Positions 4,244-40,911 of a DNA stretch of 64,000 nt are shown here, piece by piece (the stretch's first letter is position 1; every line of letters begins with the position of its first letter). The position numbers and the translations under genes were made by a program. The stretch lies in assembly GCA_000092065.1 (NCBI GenBank), contig CP000591.1. One strand, 5' to 3'. The DNA is from Ostreococcus lucimarinus. Lineage: Eukaryota. The notes beneath the pieces are model-generated. The model was not told the DNA's origin. It did no database searches and saw nothing but the letters and a program-made list of their open reading frames with translations.

Positions 4244-4550
4244 CTGCGATGGAAAGAGTCGATCGTGGTTGGTCAGTCTCGTACGAGTTCGGTGGCGCAA
4301 TGGGGGATGTTCGAGGACTTATACTTCTCTTCGGGCAATGCTAGCTCTGAGGAAACCTGTGAGCCTCGTTTTTATGTAGGAGCTGGACACGACGCAAGCG
4401 TTCGTCCGATGCCCGTGATACTAAACCCATGTGGTGAAACCGCATGAAATACCACGCGCAGAGTGCGCGCGGCGCCGATCGTACGTGTAGACGTCGCCGC
4501 CGCCGCGCGCGAACTCCGAAGCGAGAAAAAATCGAACACGTGAAACGTAC
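4244..4550 (-). other. spliceosomal intron (307 nt) of the Mot1 gene
   Basis: On the minus strand: donor CAG|GTACGT at 4550, acceptor ...tttccatcgcAG|TCC at 4244. The intron is phase 0 at both ends. The reading frame otherwise runs into a stop at 4341 and the junction lacks coding character. Its G+C looks lower than the flanking exons. Confidence 0.65.
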
Positions 4551-6983
4551 CTGTGGCACAGCCGCCGAGAGCGTCGCAGCCGAATCCGCACCAAAACCAT
4601 CTGCCTCGGGACTAGGAACTTCACCCGTGACGACGACGCCATTCGTCGCCGCCACACGCAAAAATGCCATCGATTCGCTTTTCACGTACTTGACCATTTG
4701 CGCCACCTCGCCGTACGGTGTCGGCGACGGTGCGCTGGGATATGCCGGATTCGTATTTGCTAAAATTGCCCCCAGTTGCGCACCAGGCGCTTGCAACGTC
4801 GGACGTTGCGGACCAGGCGGAACCACTCGAAGCCAAGAGGTGAGCAAGTGCGCGCCGGCGAGACGCGCGGTGGCGAGCTCGCCCGTGAGCATGCCCACGA
4901 TGTGCTGCTCCATACGAGCGACCGAACTCGAGCGTTCGTGCGCGCCGAACGCCGCGGCTAGACGCGCGAGGCACTCGAGTCCACGCATACGACCAGCGGT
5001 GGTGGCCGGCCAATCTTTCGCGACGGCGCGAATCTCACCCTTAACGCTCGGCGGCGTGGAGACGAAAATTAATTTGCCCTCGCCACGAGCGTTCGCCACC
5101 GTTGTCGCGAGTTCGCACCACTTCGCGCCGTGTACCGTGAACGTAGCCTCGATGATGGCGATCGGGACCGTGCGCAAAAGCGCCACCCACGCCTCGCTCG
5201 CCGCATCGGCGCTCGCCGCGTCGACGTCGAGCAGCGCGCCTTGAAATGCGTGACGCATCGCCGGCGCGCACGCCTCTTGCACCCACAACTGCGTCGACGC
5301 GTTCGGCTCGACGGCTAACAGTCGAGCAAGCGTCTGCCACACGGCCAGTCGTACGGCTGGGATCGGGTGCGCGGCGAACGGCCAAAGACGTGGGACGACT
5401 TCAGCGAGCGCGGCGGTGGACTTTGCGCGCGTCGATTCCAACGCGTACAGTTCGGCGATGAGCTTCATCACCGGTACCGCACTCGGTGACAAGTCGTCGA
5501 GCTCGTTGAGGAGCCCCCACAACGACGAAAGTAATTCGTTGAATTGCGGATGACTCGGCAAGTGCTCGACGGCAGGTAATAAGGATTCCGCCGCGGCGCC
5601 TCGCACGTCGTCGTCGGCGTCCACGAGCGCCTTGGTCGCCGCGGGTAGCGCTGCGGGCAAAAGCTCGACTGCCAACTCTGACTTTGCGGCGAGAATATAC
5701 TTCAACCCGAGCAACGCGGAGTGCCGCACTTCCCACTCGGGGCGCGACAGTAGTGTGAGCGTGCACGACACCACGGCGTCGACGGCTTGCGGCGACAACG
5801 GCAAAAGCGCCGCGCCGAGCGCCTGCGCGGACGTCTCACGGACGGGCGCCACCGCGCCGTCGCCCGCGAAATCACCGAAACGGTCAAGCGCTAGTATGCA
5901 CAGTAAGCGCACGCACATGTCCTCGAGCCAAGCGGCGTTGGACTCGCGAGCGATCTCCACCGTTCCCGGTTCTGGTTTCACTCCGGGCGGCGGCGCCCAA
6001 ATAGCCGCGCTCGCCGCCTGATGACGTAGCACCTCACGCAACGCCGCGGCGGCGCCGTGACGCTCTTCCCACCCCTCCGAAAACATCATGTACGCCAACG
6101 TCTCGCAGGTGCGCGCGAGCGGCCATCCGCCCGCGGCGACTTCCGCCTGTTCCTCGTCGTCCTCCTCCGCTTCCGCCTTCTCCTGTTCCAAACGCGCCGC
6201 TTCCTCGTCCTGCTTCGACCGCTTCGCGTCCAGCGGATTCGCGCCTTCGCGCAACATCCGTTTCGCCTTACGCTTCAACTTGTTCAGCTCTCGCGCGCTC
6301 AAATGACTGTAATCGACGTCGCCGGTCAACCCGTCCACCGCCTCCGCCGCGCTATCGCCAACCGCAACCTTCTCCTGCACGGTCACCTTCCCATCGTCCA
6401 GCAAATCCTCATCCTTCACCAAATCACTCATCTTCATGTTCTCGTCCATCATCGCTCCCGCCTCGGGGCCGAGCTCCATGCCTAACCTTCGCTTCAACGA
6501 CGCCTTGGCTTGCGCCAACCGTTCCGCCTTCGTCCCCGGTCCGTTTTCCAGCCGCCACCCGATCCCGCTCGAACTCAACAGTATCCCCGCCTTTTCCAGC
6601 ACGCGCTCGACGTCGAACTTCGCGAACGTGAGATCGAGCGCGTCCGAGCCCGCGTTCGCGTCCCGTCCCGTCTTCGCCTCGCTCGCGTCCCGTCCCGCGT
6701 CTCGTTCCGCCCCATCGCTCTCCATCGCGATCAGCGCGTCCACGCTCGGGTGTCGCAACCGCGACGCGATTTCACTCATCGTCGCGCTCGCCGCGACGCG
6801 GGTCTCCCATTTTTTGCTCCGCAGGTGCGCGCGAACGCGACGGAGGAGATTGGGCAACTGCGTCGAGTGCGACGCGGCGAGTTCGCCAATCTGACGCGCG
6901 GCCTCGCGCCTCGCGGCGGCGGTGGAGCCGGTGTCGAGGAGTTTGATCAGGCGGTCCAGGCGCGAGCCGCCGGATTCCGCCAT
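4551..6983 (-). CDS. MOT1: Mot1/BTAF1 exon 1 (N-terminal HEAT-repeat half)
   Basis: ATG at 6983. The HEAT/ARM-like helical repeat region fits the N-terminal TBP-binding region of BTAF1 (e.g. LDRLIKLLDTGSTAAARREAARQIGEL...). With exon 2 the protein is ~1,770 aa, in the expected BTAF1/Mot1 range. Confidence 0.8.
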
Positions 6984-9982: not shown

Positions 9983-11092
9983 TCACGTTTTTCGCTCACT
10001 CGCCGCCTCCTCCGTCTCGACGTGCAACGAGTGATGTCGCCGCTCTGCCTTCGTGAACCCGAGCTCGCGATAGTTCACGCGCGCTTCCGCACTCGTCGTA
10101 CCCACCGGCGAGTTTGCGGTTTTCGACGAAGGACCGCTGAGGATGGCGGTTAGATCGCCTCCAGCCTCCGCCGCGCGCATCGCGGCTTCGAGTTTGGCTT
10201 CGAAATCGAGCGCACTCGTCGACGGCGTCGGTTTCGCCGCGGGTTCGTACTTTTCCGGTGACTTGACTTCTAATTTCGGCTTGAACTCGCGCTTCGGCAC
10301 CGCGCGATCGAGCGGTTGCTTCTCGATCGGCGTCGACGCGCCGCGCGTTTCCTTGAGCGCGGCGGATAACATGCGCTCAAACGCATCGTCCTCGGCGGCG
10401 CTCGCCGGCGGCGACGCCTCCACCGCGGGACTGTTCACGGGACTGTTCACGAACTCCACAGGCGCGTCGACGTCCATCGCGACGTCGTCTCGTGCGCTCA
10501 AATCGTCCTCAACCTTCGCCTCGCCGTCGCCTTCCGAATTCGCCTCCGCGTCGTCGTCGCCTCCGCTCGCCTTTGGCGGCGAATTCGCCAAACCGCCCTT
10601 GGCCGCGAGCATCCGCCCGACGTCCACTCCCGCCGCCTCCGCCGCCATCGCGCGCCGCAGCTGCGCCTCGAATAACGCGTTTCTATCCTCTTCGTAAATC
10701 ACGCCGTCGATCGCCCCACCGTCGTCGTCGTCGTCGTCGTTCGCCCGCGTCGCCGTCACCGTCGGCACCGTCGTCCGCGCGCGTCCCGCGTCCTGACTCT
10801 TCACCACCGCCGCCGCCTTCACCGGCGCTCTCGCGACGCGCGCGTCGTCGTCCTTCGCGCGTCGACCGCGCGTCGGCGCGAACACCGCCGCCGTCGGGCT
10901 CGCGTCGAACGGAAACGTTTCGTCTTCCACCGGGGGAACGACTTTTCCCGTCGCGCTCGACGCCGCGCGGAGCCACGACGCACGCGAGACGCATATCGGC
11001 GAGACGTTGGACAGGTCGAACAGCGCGAGAAGTCTGCTCGCGTCGGCGGCGCGCGCGGGCGTCGAGGCGTCGGTCGTTCGCTCGCGCGCCAT
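9983..11092 (-). CDS. hypothetical low-complexity (Ala/Asp/Pro-rich) protein
   Basis: The first ATG in the ORF is at 11092; the track start at 11173 is TTG. Acidic/Ala-rich and disordered-looking; the C-terminus NYRELGFTKAERRHHSLHVETEEA is more complex. No family recognised. Confidence 0.25.
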   Translation of the reverse strand: MARERTTDASTPARAADASRLLALFDLSNVSPICVSRASWLRAASSATGKVVPPVEDETFPFDASPTAAVFAPTRGRRAKDDDARVARAPVKAAAVVKSQDAGRARTTVPTVTATRANDDDDDDGGAIDGVIYEEDRNALFEAQLRRAMAAEAAGVDVGRMLAAKGGLANSPPKASGGDDDAEANSEGDGEAKVEDDLSARDDVAMDVDAPVEFVNSPVNSPAVEASPPASAAEDDAFERMLSAALKETRGASTPIEKQPLDRAVPKREFKPKLEVKSPEKYEPAAKPTPSTSALDFEAKLEAAMRAAEAGGDLTAILSGPSSKTANSPVGTTSAEARVNYRELGFTKAERRHHSLHVETEEAASERKT

Positions 11093-11263
11093 GGCGAGCG
11101 CGAGCGGCGAAGTGTCGCTCGCGAGCGGGACGCGAAGCGTCTCGGCGCGCGGGACTAATGGGCGGGGTAGCAATACAAAGAGGCGAATCGAGCCTCGCTA
11201 AAACACACAAATACGCAAACGCAACGCGGTGACGGTCGACGCGTCGATCGATCGGCGCGTCGA

Positions 11264-11746
11264 TCAGTCGTCCTTGGAGTACAGACGCTCGAGCGACGCG
11301 TTGATGAAATACCGCTCAGCCTTTTGCACGTCCAATCGACTGCCGTCCTTGCGATATCGCCCGCGCACGAGATTATACATCGTCGTCACGCGATTGACGA
11401 TGAACCATCCGTTGGCGCTCTCGTCGCCGTCCGCGTTCGTGGGCACTTCGATCGTCTCGCCGCACGCGATGTTCTTCGGCAGCTTGTGCAGTCCTAAATC
11501 CACCGGAGGGGGGGTGGCGACGCGCACGTTGTACGGCACGAGCTTTGGGCTCGATTCGCGCGCGCCCTGAGATTTGACGTCGTCGTTGGCGTCGCGTTCC
11601 GCGCCGTCATCGCTCGATGCGCGCGCTCCGACGGCGATCTTTGCGCGATGACGTGGAGGGAGGTGTCGATTTTTGAGTCTTTCGGCGACGCTCGCGCGCG
11701 ATGCGGGCGCGGATGGCGCGCGCGCGCATCGCGATGCGATTGACAT
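11264..11746 (-). CDS. hypothetical protein (possible organellar presequence + small beta-rich domain)
   Basis: The first ATG is at 11746 (the track start is GTG). The C-terminal ~100 aa (KLVPYNVRVATPPPVDLGLHKLPKNIACGETIEVPTNADGDESANGWFIVNRVTTMYNLVRGRYRKDGSRL) look like a real folded domain that I cannot name. Confidence 0.3.
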   Translation of the reverse strand: MSIASRCARAPSAPASRASVAERLKNRHLPPRHRAKIAVGARASSDDGAERDANDDVKSQGARESSPKLVPYNVRVATPPPVDLGLHKLPKNIACGETIEVPTNADGDESANGWFIVNRVTTMYNLVRGRYRKDGSRLDVQKAERYFINASLERLYSKDD

Positions 11747-28792: not shown

Positions 28793-30241
28793 TTACGACG
28801 CCGCCGAGCGAACGCGACGCGGAAACGGGACGAAGGACTCGTGATCGGACTTGTCCTTGCCGGGCAGCGGCGGCGACGAGGGAATCCCAAAGTCGCGAGA
28901 TCGAAACGCGCGGAATTCGCGCTTGATGGCGGCGTACGGTTTGTTCTCCATCGCCCGACGCGCGCGGGGCGGGAGACGGGATAAAACGTCGGCGTCGAAG
29001 GAGGCGCACAGCTCTCGCGCGCACAGGGCGGAGGACGCCGCGCCGGAGGCGCGACACTTTTTGCCGTAGCCGTGGAGGAAACCGATGGCGCCGAGAAGGC
29101 GCTCGACGCGGCCGGATGCGATGTCGACGGCGCCGACGGCGTCGTTGAACTCAAACGTCGATCGCGACGGCGCGACGTACGTCACGCACGTCGGCGACGC
29201 GACGCGATCGCCGTCGACGACGGCGCGATAGGACGAGAGATCGTCGCTCGGTGCGTCGACGGCGACGCATCGTGGTTCGACCCGGTCGTCGGATTGTGAG
29301 TCGTCCAATCGCGCTCGTTTGACGATCGCGCGTTTCAACGCGAGAGCGACGACGCGTTTCGTCTCTTCGGCGCGCTCTTCGCGAACGTTTGGAATGGACA
29401 CGCAGATCGACCGTGGCTTGATCGCTTCGCGCGCGACGAGGCGCATGAGCGTGCCCTGTAAACCATGCATCTGCCAGCGACACATTTTATCCGAACAGCT
29501 CAAACAAAACGATGGCGCGCCTCTGCCCGGCTTCCATCGCACGGCGCCGACTTCTTGCGTCGGGCGATCGCGTTCGGGATCCGCGCCGCCGCCGCCACCG
29601 CCGCCACCGTTCATGTCCGTCAATATTTTCGCACCCGTCACCCCCGCACCTCCGCCCGCACCCCCCGTCGTCTTCGCTCGCTTCACCGTCGCCGTCGAAG
29701 CCTCCGCGCCGCCGTCGCTCCGCCTCGCCTCGCTCGGCAACTCGAACACGCTCGCGTCGCCGCACGGCGACTGACTGCAATACGCGTGCACCTCCACCCC
29801 CGCGCGCATTCGCACCCGATTCCCAGCGCCTAATATCTCATCCCACGCCGTCTCTTCGTCGCACCCAGCGCCGCGTTCGCGCGTCACCTCGAACACGCTC
29901 GCTCGTCCGTCCCTCGCCTCGGCGTACTCGCGCTGCAACCACCGCGTCAACGCGCGTCTCGCCAACACCTCCGCGTGACAGTCCCCGATCGCGCCCCCGT
30001 CGCGCGCGCGGTTCGCCATCGGCACGCACTTCGTCCCCGTCGCGAACGCCGCGACGTAGCACGTCCCTCGCGCGCTCGCCGCGTCGTTTCGCTCGACGAT
30101 GCAAAAAGCGCACAGCGTCGTGTACGCATCCTTCGACGTTTTCTCGCGTCCGCGCGCGTCGTACGTCGCCAGCGCGCACGCGCGCACGACTGCGGCGACG
30201 CGTTCGACGTCGTCGACGTCGTCGACGGCGTGCGCGCGCAT
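28793..30241 (-). CDS. ADAT1: tRNA-specific adenosine deaminase (ADAT1-like, A_deamin domain)
   Basis: Deaminase zinc-ligand motifs in order: DCHAEVLARRALTRWL (HAE), SPCGDAS (PCG), and CSDKMCRWQMHGLQGTLM (the conserved SDK...W..LG.QG motif of ADAR/ADAT1). ATG at 30241. Confidence 0.65.
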   Translation of the reverse strand: MRAHAVDDVDDVERVAAVVRACALATYDARGREKTSKDAYTTLCAFCIVERNDAASARGTCYVAAFATGTKCVPMANRARDGGAIGDCHAEVLARRALTRWLQREYAEARDGRASVFEVTRERGAGCDEETAWDEILGAGNRVRMRAGVEVHAYCSQSPCGDASVFELPSEARRSDGGAEASTATVKRAKTTGGAGGGAGVTGAKILTDMNGGGGGGGGADPERDRPTQEVGAVRWKPGRGAPSFCLSCSDKMCRWQMHGLQGTLMRLVAREAIKPRSICVSIPNVREERAEETKRVVALALKRAIVKRARLDDSQSDDRVEPRCVAVDAPSDDLSSYRAVVDGDRVASPTCVTYVAPSRSTFEFNDAVGAVDIASGRVERLLGAIGFLHGYGKKCRASGAASSALCARELCASFDADVLSRLPPRARRAMENKPYAAIKREFRAFRSRDFGIPSSPPLPGKDKSDHESFVPFPRRVRSAAS

Positions 30242-30294
30242 GCGCGCGCGCGAGACTGCCGATTCGCGCGCGCGTCTCGTCGCGCGCGTCGCCG

Positions 30295-30328
<34 letters not shown>

Positions 30329-30523
30329 AGTCGAGCGCGTTCGAGCGCCCTCACTGTTCGCGTATACGCCATGTGTCCGAACATCGCGCGCGCTTTTCGC
30401 GTTTCGCGCCGCGCGCGTCGTATTGCGCGACGACGCGTCCCATCGATCGCGACGCGCGATCGCTAAGCGCGATCGCGACGCGCGCGACCGACCGACCGAC
30501 CGCCGTTACATGCGCCAACACCA

Positions 30524-30529
30524 TAAATG
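30524..30529 (+). promoter_or_regulatory. TATA-like ATAAAT element ~85 bp upstream of the giant-gene ATG, preceded by a (CCGA)4 microsatellite
   Basis: caccATAAATgaggttgcgc is one of the very few A/T hexamers in a GC-saturated divergent intergenic region (30242..30609). Confidence 0.2.
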
Positions 30530-30609
30530 AGGTTGCGCATCGCATCTTTCGCCAGATCGCGACGCGCGTCGCCCGCGACGCCGCGAACGAGGACGGCGAA
30601 CGACCGGCG

Positions 30610-33600
30610 ATGACGCGCGTCGAGCGCGTCGCGCTGCTCGGACGCGCGCGCGACGTCGAGGACGGCACGCTCGGCGCGGGAGGCGCGTTCTTCGGGACGA
30701 ACACCGCGCGCGACGGCGACGGCGACGACGACGGCGCGCGAGAGCGCGCGCGCGAGCGCGGCGGCGCGCGGCGAGGACGGGGGACGATCGCGGTGGGAGC
30801 GATGTGCGTCGCGATCGGGGTCGCGATCGGATCGGTGACGACGTCGACGCGGGAGGGAGGACGGACGACGGGCGACGTCGCGAGCGTCGGCGCGAACGCG
30901 CCGAGCGGAGCGACGAGTCGCGCGGCGCGGGGCGCGGAAGAGGCGAATTTGGGCGACGCGACGTCGTTGGCGATCGCGAGCGTTCCCGCGGATTCGTGGA
31001 TGTCGTTCTCGACGGGGAAAGTGCGAAAGCGAAAGTATCCGGATTCGTTTTATTACGTCGTCGCGCCGGAGGCGGACGAGGAGGTCGGGTATTTGGGCGC
31101 GCCGAGCGACTGGCCGACCGGGGATCGGGTGACGGTGGATCTGCACACCGGGTGCTCGCCGATCGACGCTCTGCCGTTCCAGCGTCCCGGGTTTGATTTC
31201 GACACCGTTCAGGCCCGCTTTGTGAGCAAGAAGCTCAGCATGGAGTTCATGTTTGAGGACTCGCAGCCGATGACCAAAGTCGGGTGCGGACATTTCCGGG
31301 CCACGGTAGAGCTCTCGAAAGGATGGGAGTTTGGGTTCTATCTTCATGCGAATGGCGACGACAGCGACGAGAACACGATGCTCGACATCGGGTGCGAAAC
31401 CGCGGTGCCGGGCGCCAACAACACCAAGTGTCCGGATTTCGCTTCACCGGCGATGCTCGCGACTTCGGAGTGCACGGACAAATTCGTGTGTAATCATGGT
31501 CTGTACACGTTCTGGAATCGAAGATACGATGGCGAACAAACGTCGTTCCTGTGGGGGGCTTGCGGAAGCGAGTGTCCGCACCAGGACTGCGGCCACATGT
31601 ACTGCGCGGCGAACGAGCGCGTGCAGAACCAAGCGTGCGCGTCGTGTCCGCCTGGGACGACGAACGATGCGGGCGATAAGAACGTCGGCGCCGATACGCA
31701 GTGTGATCCGGTCATCTGCGGAGCGCACATGCGCGTGCAAGATCACAACTGCGTGCAGTGCGTCGCCGGTAAGGAGAACGAAGCCGGCGACGACGCCTCA
31801 CAAAGTAACACCGAGTGCGACGCCGTCATTTGCGAGCCGAATCATCACGTGGCGGGCAATGTGTGCACGGCGTGTCCCGCCGGTCACGCGCACGCCGGCG
31901 GCGACGTGCAGCACGGCCCTGATACGTCGTGCGACGAAGTGCTTTGCCACACGAACGAGCGCGTTCTCGGCCACCAGTGCGTGGCGTGTCCTCCGGGCTC
32001 GACGAACGCCGCCGGCGACGGCGCGGCGAGCGGCGATACGCAGTGCGACCACACTATTTGTCCGGCGAACATGCACGTCGTTGGTCACGTGTGCACGCCG
32101 TGTCCACCGGGTATGAACCACCCAGGTGGCGACGACGCTTTTTTCGGCGACACGTCGTGCAGCGCCATTCTCTGCCAGTCGAATCAGCGCGTGCTGGGTC
32201 ACGCGTGCGTCAGCTGTCCGCCCGGGACGACGAACGATGCGGACGACGACGCCTCGGGTGGCGACACGCAGTGCGATCCGGTCATCTGCGGAGCGCACAT
32301 GCGCGTGCAAGATCACAACTGCGTGCAGTGCGTCGCCGGTAAGGAGAACGAAGCCGGCGACGACGCCTCACAAAGTAACACCGAGTGCGACGCCGTCATT
32401 TGCGAGCCGAATCATCACGTGGCGGGCAATGTGTGCACGGCGTGTCCCGCCGGTCACGCGCACGCCGGCGGCGACGTGCAGCACGGCCCTGATACGTCGT
32501 GCGACGAAGTGCTTTGCCACACGAACGAGCGCGTTCTCGGCCACCAGTGCGTGGCGTGTCCTCCGGGCTCGACGAACGCCGCCGGCGACGGCGCGGCGAG
32601 CGGCGATACGCAGTGCGACCACACTATTTGTCCGGCGAACACGCACGTCGTTGGTCACGTGTGCACGCCGTGTCCACCGGGTATGAACCACCCAGGTGGC
32701 GACGACGCTTTTTTCGGCGACACGTCGTGCAGCGCCATTCTCTGCCAGTCGAATCAGCGCGTGCTGGGTCACGCGTGCGTCAGCTGTCCGCCCGGGACGA
32801 CGAACGATGCGGACGACGACGCCTCGGGTGGCGACACGCAGTGTGATCCGGTCATCTGCGGAGCGCACATGCGCGTGCAAGATCACAACTGCGTGCAGTG
32901 CGTCGCCGGTAAGGAGAACGAAGCCGGTGACGACGCCTCACAAAGTAACACCGAGTGCGACGCCGTCATTTGCGAGCCGAATCATCACGTGGCGGGCAAT
33001 GTGTGCACGGCGTGTCCCGCCGGTCACGCGCACGCCGGCGGCGACGTGCAGCACGGCCCTGATACGTCGTGCGACGAAGTGCTTTGCCACACGAACGAGC
33101 GCGTTCTCGGCCACCAGTGCGTGGCGTGTCCTCCGGGCTCGACGAACGCCGCCGGCGACGGCGCGGCGAGCGGCGATACACAGTGCGACCACACTATTTG
33201 TCCGGCGAACACGCACGTCGTTGGTCACGTGTGCACGCCGTGCGCGCCGGGTCGTGACCACCCAGGTGGCGACGATGCGACTCTCGGCGACACGTCGTGC
33301 AGTGCCATCATGTGCGGGCCCAACCAGCACGTCGTGAGCCACGCTTGCACGGTGTGTCCAGCAGGAATGGTTAACGATGCGAACGACGACGCTTCGGGTG
33401 GCGACACGCATTGCGATCCGATACTGTGTCCATCGAATCAACGCGTGCAGGGTCATACGTGTGTGCAATGTGCGCCCGGGAAGACCAACGCACCCAATGA
33501 TGATGCCTCTAGGGGCGACACTGAGTGCGATATTACGTACTGCGCCGCAAATCAGCGCGTACAGGGCCATCAATGTGTCGCGTGTGCGCCCGGCACGACG

Positions 33601-36600
33601 AACGATGCCGGCGATGACGCCTCGCAAGTCGACACGCAGTGCGCTCCGATCATTTGTGGCGCACACATGCGAGTTCAAAGTCACGCGTGCGTACAGTGCG
33701 TCCCGGGTCGCGAGAACCTGGCGGGTGACGACGCCTCCGGCCAAGATACACCCTGCGATGAAATCGTGTGCGAAGAGAACCACAAGGTCGTGAGCCACCA
33801 GTGCGTGGCGTGCCCCGCGGGGAAGATACACACGGCTGGCGATGTTGCTTCGGGGCCAGACACGTCTTGCGACGCGGTGACGTGTAGCACGAACGAGCGC
33901 GTTCAAGGCCACCAGTGCGTGGCGTGTCCGGCCGGCACGACAAACGACGGCGGCGACGACGCGTCGGGTGGCGACACGCAGTGCGATCCGGTCATTTGTC
34001 CAGCACAAACGCACGTACAAAACCACGTGTGTGAGGTGTGTCCTCCCGGTCATGCGCACCCAGGTGGTGACGACGCGTCTCAAGGCGACACGCAGTGCGA
34101 CGCAGTGATGTGTGGGGCAAATTATCACGTGCAAGATCATCATTGCGTGCCATGTCCAACGGGTAAAGACAATCAAGCGAACGACAATGCCGCGGGCGCA
34201 GATACAGAGTGCGACATCATCTATTGTGCTGCCAATCAACGCGTACAAAACAACGTCTGTACCGCGTGTCCGCCCGGCACAATTAATGCAGGCGGTGATA
34301 ACGCGTTTGACCATGATACCACTTGCGATACCGTTTATTGCGGCGTGAATCAACACGTCTTTGAAAATGAATGCGTCCCTTGTCCGGCAGGGATGGTAAA
34401 CCCGTCGGGAGACGACGCCACCGGGCCCCGCACGTTTTGCGAGCCAATCATCTGCGGCGCGCACATGCACGTACAGAATCATCAGTGCGTGCAATGTGCT
34501 CCAGGTGATGAAAATTTGGCTGGCGATAGTGCCGCGCAACACGATACCACCTGCGACGAGGTCACTTGTTCTGCGAACGAGCACGTGGTGAGCCACCAAT
34601 GCACGGCGTGTCCCGCCGGTCACGCGCACGCTGGCGGCGACGTGCAGCACGGCCCTGATACGTCGTGCGACGAAGTGCTTTGCCACACGAACGAGCGCGT
34701 TCAAGGCCACCAGTGCGTGGCGTGTCCTCCGGGCTCGACGAACGCCGCCGGCGACGGCGCGGCAAGCGGCGATACGCAGTGCGACCACACTATTTGTCCG
34801 GCGAACACGCACGTCGTCGGTCACGTGTGCACGCCGTGCGCGCCAGGCTACGAACGACTTGCCGGCGACGACGCCACCGGTGGTGATACGCAATGCAGTG
34901 CTGTCTTGTGCGGCGCAAACATGCACGTGCAGAATAATTTGTGCGCGGCGTGCCCCGCTGGCACGACGAACGCCGCCGGCGACGACGCCTCGCGAGGAAA
35001 CTCGGAATGCGATCACACTATCTGCGAAGCGCACATGCGAGTGCAGAGTCATCAGTGCGTCGCGTGCATGGATGGCAAGGAAAATCTGGCGGGAGACGAT
35101 GCCGCTGGGGGGGACACACAATGCGATGAAGTCATCTGCGCTGCCGATCATCATGTATTAAACCATCAGTGTGTATCGTGCCCTTACGGTCACGCGCACG
35201 CCGGCGGCGACGTGCAGCACGGCCCTGATACGTCGTGCGACGAAGTGCTTTGCCACACGAACGAGCGCGTTCTCGGCCACCAGTGCGTGGCGTGTCCTCC
35301 GGGCTCAACGAACGCCGCCGGCGACGGCGCGGCGAGCGGCGATACGCAGTGCGACCACACTATTTGTCCGGCGAACACGCACGTCGTTGGTCACGTGTGC
35401 ACGCCGTGCGCGCCGGGTCGTGAACACCCAGCCGGCGACGACGCCACCGGTGGTGATACGCAATGCAGCGCCGTGATGTGCGGATCCAACATGCACGTCC
35501 AAAACCACGTGTGCACGGCGTGCCCGGCCGGGACGACGAACGCCGCCGGCGACGACGCTTCCGGAGCGAATACGCAGTGCGACCCAATCTTGTGTGGCGC
35601 GAACCAACACGTCTTGAATCATCAGTGCATGCAGTGCCCGCCCGGCACGCTCAATGACGCCAGCGATAGCGCTGCCGGTGGTAATACGCAGTGCGACGCC
35701 GTGCAGTGCGGCTGCAACCAACGCGTGCAGGGCCATCAATGTGTCACGTGTGCGCCCGGGACGACGAACGACGCCGGCGATGACGCCTCACAAGGCGATA
35801 CGCAGTGCGATCCGACCATCTGCGGCGCGCACATGCGAGTGCAAGATCACGCGTGCGTAGCGTGTGTGGACGGTCGAGAGAACCTGGCGGGTGACGACGC
35901 CTCACAAGGCAACACGCAGTGCGACGAAATCGTGTGCGAAGAGAACCACAAGGTCGTGAGCCACCAGTGCGTGGCGTGCCCCGCGGGGAAGATACACACG
36001 GCTGGCGATATTGCTTCGGGCCCAGACACGTCTTGCGACGCGGTGACGTGTAGCACGAACGAGCGCGTTCAAGGCCACCAGTGCGTGGCGTGTCCGGCTG
36101 GCACGACAAACGACGGCGGCGACGACGCGTCGGGTGGCGACACGCAGTGCGATATTACCCGGTGCACGGCGCACATGCACGTACAAAACCATGTGTGCGT
36201 GCAGTGCCCGGCCGGTAAAGAGAACGTCGCGGGTGATGACGCCTCTGGAGGTAACACGGAATGCGACGTCGTGCGATGCGGTGCCAACCAGCACGTCGTC
36301 GACCACGTGTGCACGGCGTGTCCGGCCGGGACGACGAACGATGAAGGCGACGACGCTTCGGGAGCGAACACGCAGTGCGATCCCGTCATCTGTGAATTGC
36401 ACATGCGAGTGCAGAATCATCAGTGCGTCGCGTGTGCGCCTGGCAAGGAGAATCTGGCGGGCGACGACGCCTCGCAAGGTAACACCGAGTGCGACGCCGT
36501 CATTTGTTCTGCGAACGAGCACGTGGTGAGCCACCAATGCACGGCGTGTCCCGCCGGTCACGCGCACGCCGGCGGCGACGTGCAGCACGGCCCTGATACG

Positions 36601-39600
36601 TCGTGCGACGAAGTGCTTTGCCACACGAACGAGCGCGTTCTCGGCCACCAGTGCGTGGCGTGTCCTCCGGGCTCAACGAACGCCGCCGGCGACGGCGCGG
36701 CGAGCGGCGATACGCAGTGCGACCACACTATTTGCCCTGCGAACACGCACGTCGTCGGTCACGCGTGCACGCCGTGTCCGCCAGGTCATGAACACCCGGC
36801 CGGCGACGACGCCACCGGTGGTGATACGCAATGCAGCGCCGTGTCGTGTGGGCCCAACATGCACGTCCAAAACCACGCGTGCACGGCGTGCCCGGCCGGG
36901 ACGACGAACGCCGCCGGCGACGACGCTTCTGGAGCGAATACGCAGTGCGATGCGACAATTTGCGCACACAACAAGCATGTTGTCAACCACGAGTGTGTTC
37001 CGTGTCCAGATGGCCATGAACACCCAGGCGTCGCTGATGCTTCTGGCTCCGATACTTCGTGTGATGTCACGCTGTGTGGCGCGAACCAACACGTCGTGAA
37101 TCATCAGTGCATGCAGTGCCCCCCCGGCACGCTCAATGACGCCAGCGATAGCGCTGCCGGTGGTAATACGCAGTGCGACACCGTGCAGTGCGGCGTCAAC
37201 CAACGCGTGCAGGGCCATCAATGTGTCACGTGTGCGCCCGGGACGACGAACGACGCCGGCGATGACGCCTCACAAGGCGATACGCAGTGCGATCCGACCA
37301 TCTGCGGCGCGCACATGCGAGTGCAAGATCACGCGTGCGTAGCGTGTGTGGACGGTCGAGAGAACCTGGCGGGTGACGACGCCTCACAAGGCAACACGCA
37401 GTGCGACGAAATCGTGTGCGAAGAGAACCACAAGGTCGTGAGCCACCAGTGCGTGGCGTGCCCCGCGGGGAAGATACACACGGCTGGCGATATTGCTTCG
37501 GGCCCAGACACGTCTTGCGACGCGGTGACGTGTAGCACGAACGAGCGCGTTCAAGGCCACCAGTGCGTGGCGTGTCCGGCTGGCACGACAAACGACGGCG
37601 GCGACGACGCGTCGGGTGGCGACACGCAGTGCGATATTACCCGGTGCACGGCGCACATGCACGTACAAAACCATGTGTGCGTGCAGTGCCCGGCCGGTAA
37701 AGAGAACGTCGCGGGTGATGACGCCTCTGGAGGTAACACGGAATGCGACGTCGTGCGATGCGGTGCCAACCAGCACGTCGTCGACCACGTGTGCACGGCG
37801 TGTCCGGCCGGGACGACGAACGATGAAGGCGACGACGCTTCGGGAGCGAACACGCAGTGCGATCCCGTCATCTGTGAATTGCACATGCGAGTGCAGAATC
37901 ATCAGTGCGTCGCGTGTGCGCCTGGCAAGGAGAACGAAGCCGGCGACGACGCCTCGCAAGGTAACACCGAGTGCGACGCCGTCATTTGTTCTGCGAACGA
38001 GCACGTGGTGAGCCACCAATGCACGGCGTGTCCCGCCGGTCACGCGCACGCCGGCGGCGACGTGCAGCACGGCCCTGATACGTCGTGCGACGAAGTGCTT
38101 TGCCACACGAACGAGCGCGTTCTCGGCCACCAGTGCGTGGCGTGTCCTCCGGGCTCAACGAACGCCGCCGGTGACGGCGCGGCGAGCGGCGATACGCAGT
38201 GCGACCACACTATTTGCCCTGCGAACACGCACGTCGTCGGTCACGCGTGCACGCCGTGTCCGCCAGGTCATGAACACCCGGCCGGCGACGACGCCACCGG
38301 TGGTGATACGCAATGCAGCGCCGTGATGTGCGGATCCAACATGCACGTCCAAAACCACGTGTGCACGGCGTGCCCGGCCGGGACGACGAACGCCGCCGGC
38401 GACGACGCTTCTGGAGCGAATACGCAGTGTGATGTCACGCTGTGCGGCGCGAACCAACACGTCGTGAATCATCAGTGCATGCAGTGCCCGCCCGGCACGC
38501 TCAATGACGCCAGCGATAGCGCTGCCGGTGGTAATACGCAGTGCGACGCCGTGCAGTGCGGCTGCAACCAACGCGTGCAGGGCCATCAATGTGTCACGTG
38601 TGCGCCCGGGACGACGAACGACGCCGGCGATGACGCCTCACAAGGCGATACGCAGTGCGATCCGACCATCTGCGGCGCGCACATGCGAGTGCAAGATCAC
38701 GCGTGCGTAGCGTGTGTGGACGGTCGAGAGAACCTGGCGGGTGACGACGCCTCACAAGGCAACACGCAGTGCGACGAAATCGTGTGCGAAGAGAACCACA
38801 AGGTCGTGAGCCACCAGTGCGTGGCGTGCCCCGCGGGGAAGATACACACGGCTGGCGATATTGCTTCGGGCCCAGACACGTCTTGCGACGCGGTGACGTG
38901 TAGCACGAACGAGCGCGTTCAAGGCCACCAGTGCGTGGCGTGTCCGGCTGGCACGACAAACGACGGCGGCGACGACGCGTCGGGTGGCGACACGCAGTGC
39001 GATATTACCCGGTGCACGGCGCACATGCACGTACAAAACCATGTGTGCGTGCAGTGCCCGGCCGGTAAAGAGAACGTCGCGGGTGATGACGCCTCTGGAG
39101 GTAACACGGAATGCGACGTCGTGCGATGCGGTGCCAACCAGCACGTCGTCGACCACGTGTGCACGGCGTGTCCGGCCGGGACGACGAACGATGAAGGCGA
39201 CGACGCTTCGGGAGCGAACACGCAGTGCGATCCCGTCATCTGTGAATTGCACATGCGAGTGCAGAATCATCAGTGCGTCGCGTGTGCGCCTGGCAAGGAG
39301 AACGAAGCCGGCGACGACGCCTCGCAAGGTAACACCGAGTGCGACGCCGTCATTTGTTCTGCGAACGAGCACGTGGTGAGCCACCAATGCACGGCGTGTC
39401 CCGCCGGTCACGCGCACGCTGGCGGCGACGTGCAGCACGGCCCTGATACGTCGTGCGACGAAGTGCTGTGCCACACGAACGAGCGCGTTCTCGGCCACCA
39501 GTGCGTGGCGTGTCCTCCGGGCTCAACGAACGCCGCCGGCGACGGCGCGGCGAGCGGCGATACGCAGTGCGACCACACCATTTGCCCTGCGAACACGCAC

Positions 39601-40278
39601 GTCGTCGGTCACGCGTGCACGCCGTGTCCGCCAGGTCATGAACACCCGGCCGGCGACGACGCCACCGGTGGTGATACGCAATGCAGCGCCGTGTCGTGCG
39701 GGCCCAACATGCACGTCCAAAACCACGTGTGCACGGCGTGCCCGGCCGGGACGTGGAACGATGAAGGCGATGACGCTTCCGGTGCGAACACGCAGTGCGA
39801 TCCGGTCATCTGTGAAGTGCACATGCGAGTGCACGATCACGCGTGCGTTGCGTGTGCGCCTGGCAAGGAGAACGAAGCCGGCGACGACGCCTCGCAAGGT
39901 AACACCGAGTGCGACGCCGTCATTTGCGAGCCGAATCATCACGTGGCGGGCAATGTGTGCACGGCGTGTCCCGCCGGTCACGCGCACGCCGGCGGCGACG
40001 TGCAGCACGGCCCTGATACGTCGTGCGACGAAGTGCTTTGCCACACGAACGAGCGCGTTCAAGACCACCAGTGCGTGGCGTGTCCTCCGGGCTCGACGAA
40101 CGCCGCCGGCGACGGCGTGGCAAGCGGCAATACGCAGTGCGACAGCACTATTTGCGGGGCGAACAGGTACGTATCAAACCATGTGTGCGTGCTTTGCCCT
40201 TACCAACACTATCGCGCCGCCGGCGACGACGCCACCGGTCCCGACACGGCATGTATACGATATTACGGTCTCGGATAG
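30610..40278 (+). CDS. giant cysteine/histidine-rich tandem-repeat surface protein (predicted type-II membrane protein; ~75 ephrin-receptor-like/GCC2_GCC3-like 38-aa repeats)
   Basis: A single uninterrupted 3,222-codon frame from the ATG at 30610. After ~55 aa a hydrophobic signal-anchor GTIAVGAMCVAIGVAIGSV is followed by a unique ~290-aa domain (YYVVAPEADEEVGYLGAPSDWPTGDRVTVDLHTGCSPIDALPFQRPGFDFD...). From ~31590 come ~75 back-to-back 38-aa repeats of the form C-D-x3-C-x2-N-x-R-V-x-x-H-x-C-V-x-C-P-x-G-x-x-N-x-x-G-D-D-A-S-x-x-D-T-x. The ORF-track extension back to 29512 overlaps ADAT1 on the other strand and is Arg/Ser/Pro junk. Confidence 0.75.
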   Translation: MTRVERVALLGRARDVEDGTLGAGGAFFGTNTARDGDGDDDGARERARERGGARRGRGTIAVGAMCVAIGVAIGSVTTSTREGGRTTGDVASVGANAPSGATSRAARGAEEANLGDATSLAIASVPADSWMSFSTGKVRKRKYPDSFYYVVAPEADEEVGYLGAPSDWPTGDRVTVDLHTGCSPIDALPFQRPGFDFDTVQARFVSKKLSMEFMFEDSQPMTKVGCGHFRATVELSKGWEFGFYLHANGDDSDENTMLDIGCETAVPGANNTKCPDFASPAMLATSECTDKFVCNHGLYTFWNRRYDGEQTSFLWGACGSECPHQDCGHMYCAANERVQNQACASCPPGTTNDAGDKNVGADTQCDPVICGAHMRVQDHNCVQCVAGKENEAGDDASQSNTECDAVICEPNHHVAGNVCTACPAGHAHAGGDVQHGPDTSCDEVLCHTNERVLGHQCVACPPGSTNAAGDGAASGDTQCDHTICPANMHVVGHVCTPCPPGMNHPGGDDAFFGDTSCSAILCQSNQRVLGHACVSCPPGTTNDADDDASGGDTQCDPVICGAHMRVQDHNCVQCVAGKENEAGDDASQSNTECDAVICEPNHHVAGNVCTACPAGHAHAGGDVQHGPDTSCDEVLCHTNERVLGHQCVACPPGSTNAAGDGAASGDTQCDHTICPANTHVVGHVCTPCPPGMNHPGGDDAFFGDTSCSAILCQSNQRVLGHACVSCPPGTTNDADDDASGGDTQCDPVICGAHMRVQDHNCVQCVAGKENEAGDDASQSNTECDAVICEPNHHVAGNVCTACPAGHAHAGGDVQHGPDTSCDEVLCHTNERVLGHQCVACPPGSTNAAGDGAASGDTQCDHTICPANTHVVGHVCTPCAPGRDHPGGDDATLGDTSCSAIMCGPNQHVVSHACTVCPAGMVNDANDDASGGDTHCDPILCPSNQRVQGHTCVQCAPGKTNAPNDDASRGDTECDITYCAANQRVQGHQCVACAPGTTNDAGDDASQVDTQCAPIICGAHMRVQSHACVQCVPGRENLAGDDASGQDTPCDEIVCEENHKVVSHQCVACPAGKIHTAGDVASGPDTSCDAVTCSTNERVQGHQCVACPAGTTNDGGDDASGGDTQCDPVICPAQTHVQNHVCEVCPPGHAHPGGDDASQGDTQCDAVMCGANYHVQDHHCVPCPTGKDNQANDNAAGADTECDIIYCAANQRVQNNVCTACPPGTINAGGDNAFDHDTTCDTVYCGVNQHVFENECVPCPAGMVNPSGDDATGPRTFCEPIICGAHMHVQNHQCVQCAPGDENLAGDSAAQHDTTCDEVTCSANEHVVSHQCTACPAGHAHAGGDVQHGPDTSCDEVLCHTNERVQGHQCVACPPGSTNAAGDGAASGDTQCDHTICPANTHVVGHVCTPCAPGYERLAGDDATGGDTQCSAVLCGANMHVQNNLCAACPAGTTNAAGDDASRGNSECDHTICEAHMRVQSHQCVACMDGKENLAGDDAAGGDTQCDEVICAADHHVLNHQCVSCPYGHAHAGGDVQHGPDTSCDEVLCHTNERVLGHQCVACPPGSTNAAGDGAASGDTQCDHTICPANTHVVGHVCTPCAPGREHPAGDDATGGDTQCSAVMCGSNMHVQNHVCTACPAGTTNAAGDDASGANTQCDPILCGANQHVLNHQCMQCPPGTLNDASDSAAGGNTQCDAVQCGCNQRVQGHQCVTCAPGTTNDAGDDASQGDTQCDPTICGAHMRVQDHACVACVDGRENLAGDDASQGNTQCDEIVCEENHKVVSHQCVACPAGKIHTAGDIASGPDTSCDAVTCSTNERVQGHQCVACPAGTTNDGGDDASGGDTQCDITRCTAHMHVQNHVCVQCPAGKENVAGDDASGGNTECDVVRCGANQHVVDHVCTACPAGTTNDEGDDASGANTQCDPVICELHMRVQNHQCVACAPGKENLAGDDASQGNTECDAVICSANEHVVSHQCTACPAGHAHAGGDVQHGPDTSCDEVLCHTNERVLGHQCVACPPGSTNAAGDGAASGDTQCDHTICPANTHVVGHACTPCPPGHEHPAGDDATGGDTQCSAVSCGPNMHVQNHACTACPAGTTNAAGDDASGANTQCDATICAHNKHVVNHECVPCPDGHEHPGVADASGSDTSCDVTLCGANQHVVNHQCMQCPPGTLNDASDSAAGGNTQCDTVQCGVNQRVQGHQCVTCAPGTTNDAGDDASQGDTQCDPTICGAHMRVQDHACVACVDGRENLAGDDASQGNTQCDEIVCEENHKVVSHQCVACPAGKIHTAGDIASGPDTSCDAVTCSTNERVQGHQCVACPAGTTNDGGDDASGGDTQCDITRCTAHMHVQNHVCVQCPAGKENVAGDDASGGNTECDVVRCGANQHVVDHVCTACPAGTTNDEGDDASGANTQCDPVICELHMRVQNHQCVACAPGKENEAGDDASQGNTECDAVICSANEHVVSHQCTACPAGHAHAGGDVQHGPDTSCDEVLCHTNERVLGHQCVACPPGSTNAAGDGAASGDTQCDHTICPANTHVVGHACTPCPPGHEHPAGDDATGGDTQCSAVMCGSNMHVQNHVCTACPAGTTNAAGDDASGANTQCDVTLCGANQHVVNHQCMQCPPGTLNDASDSAAGGNTQCDAVQCGCNQRVQGHQCVTCAPGTTNDAGDDASQGDTQCDPTICGAHMRVQDHACVACVDGRENLAGDDASQGNTQCDEIVCEENHKVVSHQCVACPAGKIHTAGDIASGPDTSCDAVTCSTNERVQGHQCVACPAGTTNDGGDDASGGDTQCDITRCTAHMHVQNHVCVQCPAGKENVAGDDASGGNTECDVVRCGANQHVVDHVCTACPAGTTNDEGDDASGANTQCDPVICELHMRVQNHQCVACAPGKENEAGDDASQGNTECDAVICSANEHVVSHQCTACPAGHAHAGGDVQHGPDTSCDEVLCHTNERVLGHQCVACPPGSTNAAGDGAASGDTQCDHTICPANTHVVGHACTPCPPGHEHPAGDDATGGDTQCSAVSCGPNMHVQNHVCTACPAGTWNDEGDDASGANTQCDPVICEVHMRVHDHACVACAPGKENEAGDDASQGNTECDAVICEPNHHVAGNVCTACPAGHAHAGGDVQHGPDTSCDEVLCHTNERVQDHQCVACPPGSTNAAGDGVASGNTQCDSTICGANRYVSNHVCVLCPYQHYRAAGDDATGPDTACIRYYGLG
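31700..33240 (+). repeat. higher-order repeat A: 570-bp unit (5 x 114 bp), ~2.7 near-identical copies
   Basis: The protein block CDPVICGAHMRVQDHNCVQCVAGKENEAGDDASQSNTECDAVICEPNHHVAGNVCTACPAGHAHAGGDVQHGPDTSCDEVLCHTNERVLGHQCVACPPGSTNAAGDGAASGDTQCDHTICPAN.HVVGHVCTPC... begins at 31702, 32272 and 32842 with essentially identical DNA. The antisense ORFs at 31798..32316 and 32368..32886 are letter-identical apart from one residue. Confidence 0.85.
35190..39600 (+). repeat. higher-order repeat B: 1368/1482-bp units (12 or 13 x 114 bp), ~3 near-identical copies
   Basis: The reverse-strand ORFs at 35902..36648, 37384..38130 and 38752..39498 translate almost identically (1-2 differences in 248 aa), spaced 1482 and 1368 bp apart. 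The forward protein repeats a ~460-aa block (CDPILCGANQHV.NHQCMQCPPGTLNDASDSAAGGNTQCD...CTACPAGTTNAAGDDASGANTQCD) three times. Confidence 0.85.
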
Positions 40279-40407: not shown

Positions 40408-40911
40408 ATGCGCGCGTCCGCGCGCGTCGCGAGCGCGCGCGCGGTCGTGAAGCGCGAGCGCGACGCGCGATCGACGCGCGCGCGCGCGTTCGTGCCGCCC
40501 ATCGTCCCGAATCCGCGCCAGGGCGACGACGACGCGAATGCTGACGCGGCACCGACGCTGCCGAACATCGAACGCGCGCTGGCGCCGCACGGATGGGCGA
40601 TCGGCGCCGAGCGAGGGTACGACGACACGCCGCACGCGTTCAAGATATTCAAAGTGCGCGATGGGCATCACACGCTGGAACAGCTGCAAGAGGCGCTGTA
40701 CGTGAGCGACGAACGAGGGTGTCGGATACGACGCGAGACGCAGTCGTTGTTTTACATGTGCTGCGATGGCGTGCGGTGTCGGTTGAACGAGGGGAAGAAA
40801 GAGATCGTGGTGGAGATGCCGTGTGATTTGGACAGCGTGGGAGCGTACGTGGCGAAGGCCAAGGTGATTGAGGACATCATTAAGAGTTCTCAAAAGAAGA
40901 GGGCTTCGTGA
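40408..40911 (+). CDS. hypothetical small protein (possible Cys/His zinc-finger-like)
   Basis: ATG at 40408. 167 aa with a Cys/His cluster ERGCRIRRETQSLFYMCCDGVRCRLNEGKKEIVVEMPCDLDS. No family recognised. Confidence 0.3.
   Translation: MRASARVASARAVVKRERDARSTRARAFVPPIVPNPRQGDDDANADAAPTLPNIERALAPHGWAIGAERGYDDTPHAFKIFKVRDGHHTLEQLQEALYVSDERGCRIRRETQSLFYMCCDGVRCRLNEGKKEIVVEMPCDLDSVGAYVAKAKVIEDIIKSSQKKRAS

Follow-up and report, generated by a model that had tools for sequence, protein, structure and literature searches.

The cysteine-rich folds of tumor necrosis factor receptors (TNFR) and growth factor receptors are elongated ladders of small, disulfide-stapled beta-hairpin modules, and the modules of the ephrin-receptor-like family PF07699 and of the ELAPOR1-type family PF23091 are small hairpins of this kind with a C-x2-C-P-x-G-T-x-N core. 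The same core, and in models the same type of ladder, was found in a giant protein of Ostreococcus lucimarinus, encoded at positions 30610 to 40278 of a 64,000-nucleotide stretch of contig CP000591.1 (GenBank assembly GCA_000092065.1; the whole stretch is called the window here). Ephrin-receptor-like modules are about 48 residues long and contain six cysteines, whereas the module of the giant protein has a strict length of 38 residues, four cysteines, and an acidic G-D-D-A-S-G-x-D-T loop, and it is repeated 76 times. The giant protein is an extreme form of the TNFR/ephrin-receptor-like cysteine-repeat surface protein, built from two families that no curated library describes.

Other described systems share parts of this design. 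Chlamydomonas Mst1 (PDB 8wa2, 8tx1) is secreted, polymerizes, contains Ig domains as well as a hydroxyproline helix, and is tethered via PKD2. In contrast, the giant protein has a membrane anchor, no Ig or polyproline II (PPII) parts, and no sign of polymerization, and Ostreococcus has no flagella. RTX/Bap-type adhesins, Giardia VSP/HCMP proteins, and ciliate immobilization antigens likewise form giant extracellular arrays or CxxC-rich coats, but they have other folds and anchors, and bacterial extender arrays have a distal ligand-binding region that is missing from the giant protein. In giant tandem-repeat surface proteins, recombination shifts the copy number, and their arrays are collapsed in short-read assemblies.

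The giant gene and its repeat array

The gene consists of the following parts, given in window coordinates.

30610..40278, plus strand: complete, intronless coding sequence of 3,222 residues plus stop; 328.5 kDa, isoelectric point (pI) 4.59
30610..30780, plus strand: predicted cytosolic N-terminal tail (residues 1-57), with an acidic dileucine motif and an Arg-rich stretch, RERARERGGARRGR, adjoining the anchor
30622-30639, plus strand: acidic dileucine motif E5-R-V-A-L-L10 (ERAALL and ERAPLL in orthologs)
30781..30837, plus strand: single predicted signal-anchor/transmembrane (TM) helix (residues 58-76, GTIAVGAMCVAIGVAIGSV), from hydropathy
30838..31080, plus strand: low-complexity juxtamembrane linker (residues 77-157), weakly conserved, poorly aligned or missing in ortholog P0018
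31081..31587, plus strand: conserved membrane-proximal domain (residues 158-326, ~170 residues), predicted CBM20-like beta-sandwich with eight conserved cysteines, the last being the "C1" of module 1
31588..40251, plus strand: array of 76 modules of 38 residues (114 nt; residues 327-3214), C-x4-C-x10-C-x2-C-P-x-G-x-x-N-x-A-G-D-D-A-S-G-x-D-T-x
31702..33183, plus strand: higher-order repeat with a 5-module (570-nt) unit, ~2.6 copies, modules 2-14 (types BCDEF BCDEF BCD), seen as an identity peak at lag 5
35578..39681, plus strand: higher-order repeat with a 12-module (1,368-nt) unit, three copies (modules 36-47, 49-60, and 61-71), visible as peaks of identity at lags 12, 13, and 25
40252..40278, plus strand: C-terminal tail CIRYYGLG and stop, eight residues after the last module

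A regular-expression parse placed the 76 modules back to back, all of 38 residues, with no gap and no indel. Module columns C1, C6, V12, C17, and C20 were invariant (76/76), G23, D30, and T37 were present in 75/76 modules, and H15, N9, and P21 in 68/76, 58/76, and 55/76, respectively. The whole protein contained 316 cysteines (9.8%), 206 histidines (6.4%), and 307 aspartates; within the array, 380 aspartates and glutamates stood against 76 lysines and arginines, with an additional 201 histidines. The original prediction, made from the sequence alone, had proposed an intronless gene with about 75 such modules in a C-x4-C-x10-C-x2-C register, roughly 300 cysteines, and more than 150 histidines; the counts bear out each of these estimates, and the start and the length of 3,222 residues were confirmed.

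On the plus strand, a single uninterrupted open frame extends from 29512 to 40278. Position 30610 is the first in-frame ATG that matches the N-termini of the orthologs (P0002, P0018; MTRVERVALL / MSAERAALL / AERAPLL), and the upstream extension (29512-30609) was rejected as coding sequence because it overlaps a divergent A_deamin gene and the orthologs begin at the methionine equivalent to 30610. The probability of a stop-free run of 3,222 codons by chance at the given base composition is 2e-39, and the GC content at codon positions 1, 2, and 3 was 0.66, 0.53, and 0.74; the open frame is therefore not due to chance. The ratio of nonsynonymous to synonymous substitution rates (dN/dS) against the sister-species ortholog was 0.15 in the membrane-proximal domain and 0.19 in modules 1-6, and it was 0.14-0.34 between recent internal duplicates of the array. 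The linker evolves fast (dN/dS ~0.46 vs. 0.15 in the domain that follows it), and dN/dS was below 1 wherever measured. The frame of the giant gene is under purifying selection. Many antisense open reading frames (ORFs) of 170-740 residues (e.g., 32938..35154, 738 residues) were also present on the minus strand within the array (31798-40068), together with sense ORFs in shifted frames; they recur in step with the array, and the simplest explanation is that they are by-products of a GC-rich periodic coding sequence.

The modules fall into 33 types at ≥90% nucleotide identity, and adjacent modules are only ~58% identical in nucleotide sequence; the basic modules are therefore old. Due to this low identity, Tandem Repeats Finder detected only 11 of the 76 copies (in the region of the 5-module unit, period 114), and a protein-level parse was needed. 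Between copies of the 5-module unit, there are 2 substitutions over 570 nt and 3 over 342 nt. The copies of the 12-module unit, with module 48 as an extra module between copies 1 and 2, differ by 0.7-1.8% at a dN/dS of 0.14-0.34, and the range over all higher-order copies is 0.35-1.8%. The divergence of the 12-module copies indicates that they are separate genomic copies and not a duplicated assembly.

The length of the array differed among assemblies. A short-read contig of 108 kb from Tara Oceans (L002; ena:ERZ907871 k127_991836) is 99% identical to the window in both flanks, and at its positions 11092-11553 it skips from window position 32078 to 39711 via a 462-nt stretch that is common to early and late modules; its gene product has 552 residues and five modules. 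All 15 members of the protein cluster of this gene are metagenomic collapses of 72-603 residues, short-read contigs of the locus show 5-6 modules, and the short-read version of the sister species (L001/P0002) has six. Such collapse is what assembly at k=127 produces when repeats have over 127 identical bases in common. The membrane-proximal domain of the sister species is ~75% identical to that of the window (DNA), and two pilon-polished long-read contigs of this species, ~1.17 Mb each, carry arrays of 10.9 kb with ~96 modules (L003, 6916-18851) and 9.1 kb with ~80 modules (L004, 1762-11860). These arrays are interrupted by long-read frameshifts only, and one unbroken piece encodes 2,684 residues. 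Long reads had been suggested in the original prediction as a test of an assembly artifact, and the two sister-species assemblies uphold the long array. The flanks of L003 and L004 are ~99% identical, and the difference of ~1.8 kb (~16 modules) between their arrays is either a natural copy-number polymorphism or a long-read assembly error. One fragment from the sister species (P0233, MAK95759.1, in the P0002 cluster) is filed as "hypothetical protein [Euryarchaeota archaeon]" from a metagenome-assembled genome (MAG), almost certainly through mis-binning of an Ostreococcus contig.

The 3,222-residue product had no exact match in protein collections, nor did two neighboring proteins. No protein in a collection of 5.8 billion sequences combined a high-identity N-terminal domain with the array; thus, the full-length gene appears to be unrepresented in public protein sets. 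The literature on ephrin-like, cysteine-rich, or surface proteins of Ostreococcus and on dileucine motifs contained no earlier description of the giant protein that could be found.

The topology is expected to be type II, because the protein has a single hydrophobic helix and its positive charge sits on the N-side of this anchor. The segment GTIAVGAMCVAIGVAIGSV has a Kyte-Doolittle value of 2.04 and was the sole scanning interval of the protein to exceed 1.6; the repeat region peaked at 0.75. At the C-terminal end, the hydropathy scan and the module parse revealed no distal globular domain, TM segment, or glycosylphosphatidylinositol (GPI)-type hydrophobic end, in agreement with the signal-anchor and the type II arrangement that had been proposed. 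The sister-species protein ends in ...DTQCV* in three assemblies, and both species stop one cysteine past the last module.

This last cysteine bears on the structural register. The "C1" of module 1 is the last conserved cysteine of the membrane-proximal domain family and is nearly invariant in the family alignment, which consists mostly of module-less members. This conservation, and the cysteine found past the final module in each species, make a structural register displaced by one cysteine the probable one. In the shifted register, the conserved ectodomain cysteines are all even in number, and two disulfides per module, ~156 in total, would form. Outside the conserved ectodomain pattern, cysteine was found only at C294 (31489-31491) and as a fifth cysteine at column 8 of modules 37 and 62 (35713-35715 and 38563-38565), three extras that are specific to the lineage; the middle copy of that module type in the 12-module repeat has valine instead.

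The 2,888-residue array contained no N-x-S/T sequon, compared with 19.9 ± 4.1 in plain shuffles and 9.75 ± 2.2 in column-preserving shuffles (0/2,000 reached zero). Elsewhere, sequons occurred at 0.21 per foreign module and 10 times in ~59 modules of the sister species. The sequon depletion of the array is therefore specific to this species.

The module and the membrane-proximal domain as protein families

The module reached the threshold of one curated family, PF23091, and this only marginally. In modules 1-10, PF23091 (TNFR_ELAPOR1_6th) scored 35.1 bits against a cut-off of 33.2, summed over five stretches; three other pieces of 10-11 modules scored 15.1, 22.2, and 17.0 bits, and the matches spanned profile positions ~10-37 only. 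PF07699 (threshold 23.1 bits) matched neither the whole protein nor the four 10-11-module pieces, even at E ≤ 10, and a Chromera homolog (P0064) scored 15.2 bits against it. VSP, furin-like, TNFR_c6, thrombospondin (TSP) type 3, and myxo_disulf_rpt (DUF4215, TIGR02232) models gave no match in Pfam at E ≤ 10 or in NCBIfam at E ≤ 1, and an NCBIfam scan of the giant protein found nothing. Searches of PDB sequences with both domains (phmmer and profiles) returned chance matches at E > 1 only. The ephrin-receptor- or TNFR-like character without a clean family match that had first been noticed is supported by these scores.

For fold prediction, 89 four-module segments, 40 of the window and 49 of homologs, were aligned in register to serve as input. 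AlphaFold2 modeled modules 20-23 with one beta-hairpin per module (columns 10-13/16-19) at a pLDDT (predicted local distance difference test) score of 97.2, which the paralogous rows of the alignment may have raised somewhat. A fold search with this model retrieved as neighbors only the cysteine-rich domains of TNFR, ELAPOR1, EphA2, and CaSR and the Chlamydomonas Mst1 rod, all of them weak. The module is predicted to fold as a disulfide ladder of the TNFR/ephrin-receptor type.

A search with modules 16-26 yielded 200 matches at E ≤ 1e-3 (best E = 1.7e-98), including MMETSP and EukProt transcripts, many Myxococcota MAG proteins, and Chromera velia, whose homolog P0064 carries the UniRef label "ephrin type A/B receptor-like". 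The foreign modules are 45-60% identical to the algal ones over several modules and have the same cysteine spacing and loop (e.g., P0019, P0021, P0044, P0095, and L022). The consensus of 405 foreign modules, C-[DT]-[AP]-[TIV]-L-C-x-x-[ND]-[EQ]-[RYH]-V-x-x-[NH]-x-C-x-x-C-P-x-G-T-T-N-x-A-G-D-D-A-S-G-x-D-T, agrees with the modules of the window column by column. Column 15, ahead of the third cysteine and first described as an invariant histidine, is only near-invariant in the giant protein (H 89%) and is N in 52% and H in 35% of the 405 foreign modules. Because this histidine is asparagine in half of the family, it is neither a defining residue nor an obligatory metal ligand. Proteins elsewhere carry up to eight modules among the matches listed (all ≤730 residues), which is a lower bound. 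Their partner domains include RCC1 propellers, SUEL lectin, FG-GAP-like, DUF285, PAN, EGF-CA, and reprolysin peptidase domains; some Myxococcota module proteins have MYXO-CTERM anchors, and other relatives have N-terminal TM helices. In secreted or anchored proteins elsewhere, the module usually stands beside globular domains, as would be expected of a stalk.

Further loci were sought with a degenerate DNA pattern for A-G-D-D-A-S-G-x-D-T, and only loci with several matches 114 nt apart were counted; single matches in Streptomyces and similar genomes were taken as chance. The multi-match loci belonged mainly to Myxococcota and Bradymonadales (L023, L060, L085, L087, Bradymonadaceae MAG; L054, Haliangium MAG), with a few other or unclassified MAGs. 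Among these pattern loci, the module was confirmed by translation in L022 alone (4094-6601; CALJDU010000044.1, "uncultured bacterium" MAG), which encodes 22 consecutive modules. The pattern also matched L007 (316-12026; IMGVR_UViG_3300020185_000019) and L008 and L009 (IMGVR_UViG_3300022939_002338), on two IMG/VR contigs of 97.5 and 133.8 kb (GC 0.47-0.50) that are filed as viral and are putatively so. There, a giant secreted ORF, of more than 3,903 residues on one contig, runs off the locus and alternates RCC1-like propellers with 38-residue modules. The module had been taken for a lineage-specific one; on the sequence matches, it is instead found in marine protists, in Myxococcota/Bradymonadales, and on two putative viral contigs, and its presence in the genomes of predatory bacteria implies transfer between domains of life. 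The longest arrays seen anywhere are those of Ostreococcus. The foreign proteins combine 3-22 modules with RCC1, SUEL lectin, FG-GAP-like, DUF285, or MYXO-CTERM parts, whereas in Ostreococcus there are 76 modules with a threefold histidine content and no head.

The region between the anchor and the array was originally described as a unique domain of ~290 residues. It comprises the ~80-residue linker and the conserved membrane-proximal domain of ~170 residues, for which a profile of three orthologous copies found 82 representatives in 1.84 billion proteins (54 at E ≤ 1e-10). No Pfam model covers this domain (residues 1-326 had no match at E ≤ 1), and a word-indexed homology search with its profile returned nine unnamed proteins only. 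Family members share an N-terminal tail, an anchor, a ~155-residue domain with eight cysteines, and a variable distal part, which may be B-lectin, DUF285, PAN, Ephrin_rec_like, RCC1, C-type lectin, kringle, or 38-residue modules; two members (P0142, P0155) carry the modules plus a further C-terminal domain. In 31 of 40 complete family tails (Met start and upstream anchor), a [DE]xxxL[LI] motif was present, mostly in the first 18 residues, compared with 0.9 ± 0.9 in shuffled tails, and the N-side of the anchor had twice the Lys and Arg frequency of the other side (40 family members). The only publicly named member, as a "hypothetical protein", is a 319-residue O. tauri paralog (P0310, XP_003081092.2, ostta09g00975) that consists only of an ERAPLL tail, an anchor, and the CBM20-like domain; no paper mentioning ostta09g00975 was found.

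In models, the membrane-proximal domain resembles the beta-sandwich of CBM20 domains (glucoamylase, CGTase, STBD1, laforin), from which it differs by an extra Cys-rich C-terminal subdomain and a predicted extracellular location. PF00686 did not match it, and a profile search of PDB sequences found nothing. An hhalign comparison with the Aspergillus niger starch-binding domain aligned the expected strands at a probability of 6%; therefore, the CBM20 likeness is claimed at the fold level only. This domain, with its predicted CBM20-like fold, defines an unnamed family of type II protist proteins.

Possible roles at the cell surface

The giant protein is best read as a type II membrane protein, glycoprotein-like, that forms an acidic, disulfide-stapled surface rod or coat, is sorted by adaptors, and changes in length by recombination. 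Confidence is about 0.5 for this reading as a whole, high for the architecture and modest for the role. The Arg-rich tail would lie in the cytosol, one helix would anchor the protein, and ~3,150 residues would enter the lumen of the endoplasmic reticulum and then reach the cell exterior; extracellular exposure is suggested by the disulfide content and by the extracellular contexts of every relative. The exposed part would begin with the CBM20-like beta-sandwich near the membrane and continue with 76 TNFR/ephrin-receptor-type modules, without a distal head. TNFR-type spacing is ~2.6 nm per 40 residues, and the array scaled on it measures 188 nm. Scaled on the Cys-rich domain of Mst1, which has 678 residues and 26 disulfides over 26 nm (PMC11015965), the array measures 111 nm. 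When extended, it would thus reach ~110-190 nm, a tenth to a fifth of the cell diameter. Due to the excess of acidic over basic residues and the pI of 4.6, the array would form a strongly acidic brush, and its conserved G-D-D-x-x-G-x-D-T loops probably bind divalent cations. The role is most likely structural, as a pericellular coat or spacer that would limit the approach of viruses, bacteria, grazers, and other cells; a coat, spacer, or barrier is favored because the module joins globular domains elsewhere and is headless here. The array may also serve as a multivalent cation- or ligand-binding surface. Through the conserved N-terminal ExxxLL motif, the protein would bind clathrin adaptor complexes that sort it and retrieve it by endocytosis, and unequal recombination between the 5- and 12-module higher-order units would change the length of the array.

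Several points weigh against this reading. A headless rod is unusual for a stalk, and dileucine motifs can also send proteins to vacuole- or lysosome-like compartments, which leaves the plasma-membrane location presumptive. No transcript-derived sequence of the giant gene was found, as all cluster members come from metagenome assemblies, and the disulfide connectivity, the rise per module, and the straightness of the rod are properties that we infer.

The histidine content raises an alternative function. The modules contain 2.64 histidines on average in the giant protein and 2.9 in the sister species, compared with 0.79 in 365 foreign modules, and nine HAHAGGDVQHG variants occur in the giant protein. 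Together with the strongly acidic character and the endocytic-type motif conserved in the family tails, this would suit a metal-capturing surface matrix or an endocytic scavenger receptor that binds Fe, Zn, Cu, Ni, or colloids and is internalized via ExxxLL, comparable to the endocytic iron receptors of diatoms; in these algae, surface proteins that are regulated by iron and carry endocytosis motifs and duplicated domains have been documented (PMC3491386). However, the most conserved histidine, at column 15, is more likely a structural turn residue given its replacement in half of the family, and no known metal-site motif or family was matched in Pfam or NCBIfam. Metal capture is considered an unlikely main role.

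A role as an adhesin or recognition molecule is unlikely to a similar degree. The module surface would then itself be the ligand in cell-cell or gamete recognition, in attachment to particles, or as a virus receptor or decoy, and its copy number and sequence would vary under diversifying pressure. The higher-order repeats are quickly reshuffled and copy numbers differ, as in the repeat adhesins of fungi and bacteria, the module is shared with predatory bacteria (Myxococcota, Bradymonadales) and with giant ORFs of the two IMG/VR contigs, and the membrane-proximal domain has the predicted fold of a carbohydrate-binding module. On the other hand, the dN/dS values well below 1 give no sign of diversifying selection, the protein has no distal binding domain, its CBM-like domain sits at the membrane end and not at the tip, and the CBM20 kinship is unsupported by sequence.

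A broader scenario, which is doubtful, is that the "naked" cells of Ostreococcus wear a so far unrecognized brush of disulfide-stapled, His/Asp-rich rods of 0.1-0.2 µm that acts as an endocytic antenna, whose 76 equivalent modules would capture trace metals, other cationic cargo, or virions, with recycling via ExxxLL. The family would then represent widespread endocytic receptors of protists with interchangeable ectodomains, and the module a stalk element swapped among protists, predatory bacteria, and viruses.

The protein might also reside in the lumen of an internal compartment (a vacuole, an endosome, or an acidocalcisome-like organelle), where the array would buffer or store cations and ExxxLL would act as a targeting signal of the tonoplast or lysosome type. 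Acidic dileucine motifs, here conserved, steer many proteins to lysosome- or vacuole-type organelles, and ELAPOR1, which both fold and Pfam place among the closest relatives, belongs to endosomes/lysosomes. This location is improbable because a rod of ~100 nm would fit badly into organelles as small as those of a 1-µm cell and the relatives of the module occur in lectin, PAN, kringle, and MYXO-CTERM contexts that are typical of the cell exterior. Finally, the very improbable explanation that assembly over-expanded the array, or that the gene is a decaying or unexpressed pseudogene, could draw on the 5-6 modules of the short-read contigs and on the absence of the gene from all protein sets searched, but it is rejected, since short-read collapse is expected at k=127 (462 nt are shared in the Tara contig), two independent sister-species long-read assemblies carry arrays of 9-11 kb, 9.7 kb are free of stops and frameshifts, and the internal duplicates are 0.35-1.8% apart with dN/dS below 0.35.

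Wider context and neighboring genes

Ostreococcus, the textbook minimal eukaryote without wall or scales, serves as a model in virus-host and trace-metal biology. A predicted surface protein of 328 kDa that is missing from the protein sets searched, and that appears with ~550 residues in short-read assemblies, would escape transcriptomics, proteomics, and population genomics that rely on such gene models. If the surface rod or coat extends over a fifth of the cell diameter, it matters for prasinovirus adsorption, grazing, aggregation, sinking, and metal acquisition. Furthermore, two uncurated families have been delimited, a 38-residue TNFR-like stalk module common to protists, Myxococcota/Bradymonadales, and contigs of putative giant viruses, and a CBM20-like domain that marks a type II protist family with a conserved adaptor-type motif, and the giant gene is a caution regarding genes that are lost through repeat collapse.

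One upstream neighbor is transcribed divergently from the giant gene:

28793..30241, minus strand: A_deamin (adenosine-deaminase) gene

The surrounding genes encode Dzip-like, SET/TPR, trypsin-like, pseudouridine synthase, A_deamin, BRCA2, CREG/DUF2470, short-chain dehydrogenase, 2OG-Fe(II) oxygenase, and Omp85 proteins, and no functional tie of these genes to the giant gene was seen. A neighboring protein of 167 residues is identical to XP_001420254.1 of Ostreococcus lucimarinus, which identifies the source as this species or a very close strain and agrees with the Mamiellophyceae affiliation guessed at first. At the 5' end of its gene, Tandem Repeats Finder detected an imperfect (GC)n-like dinucleotide run of ~37 copies (40410-40488).

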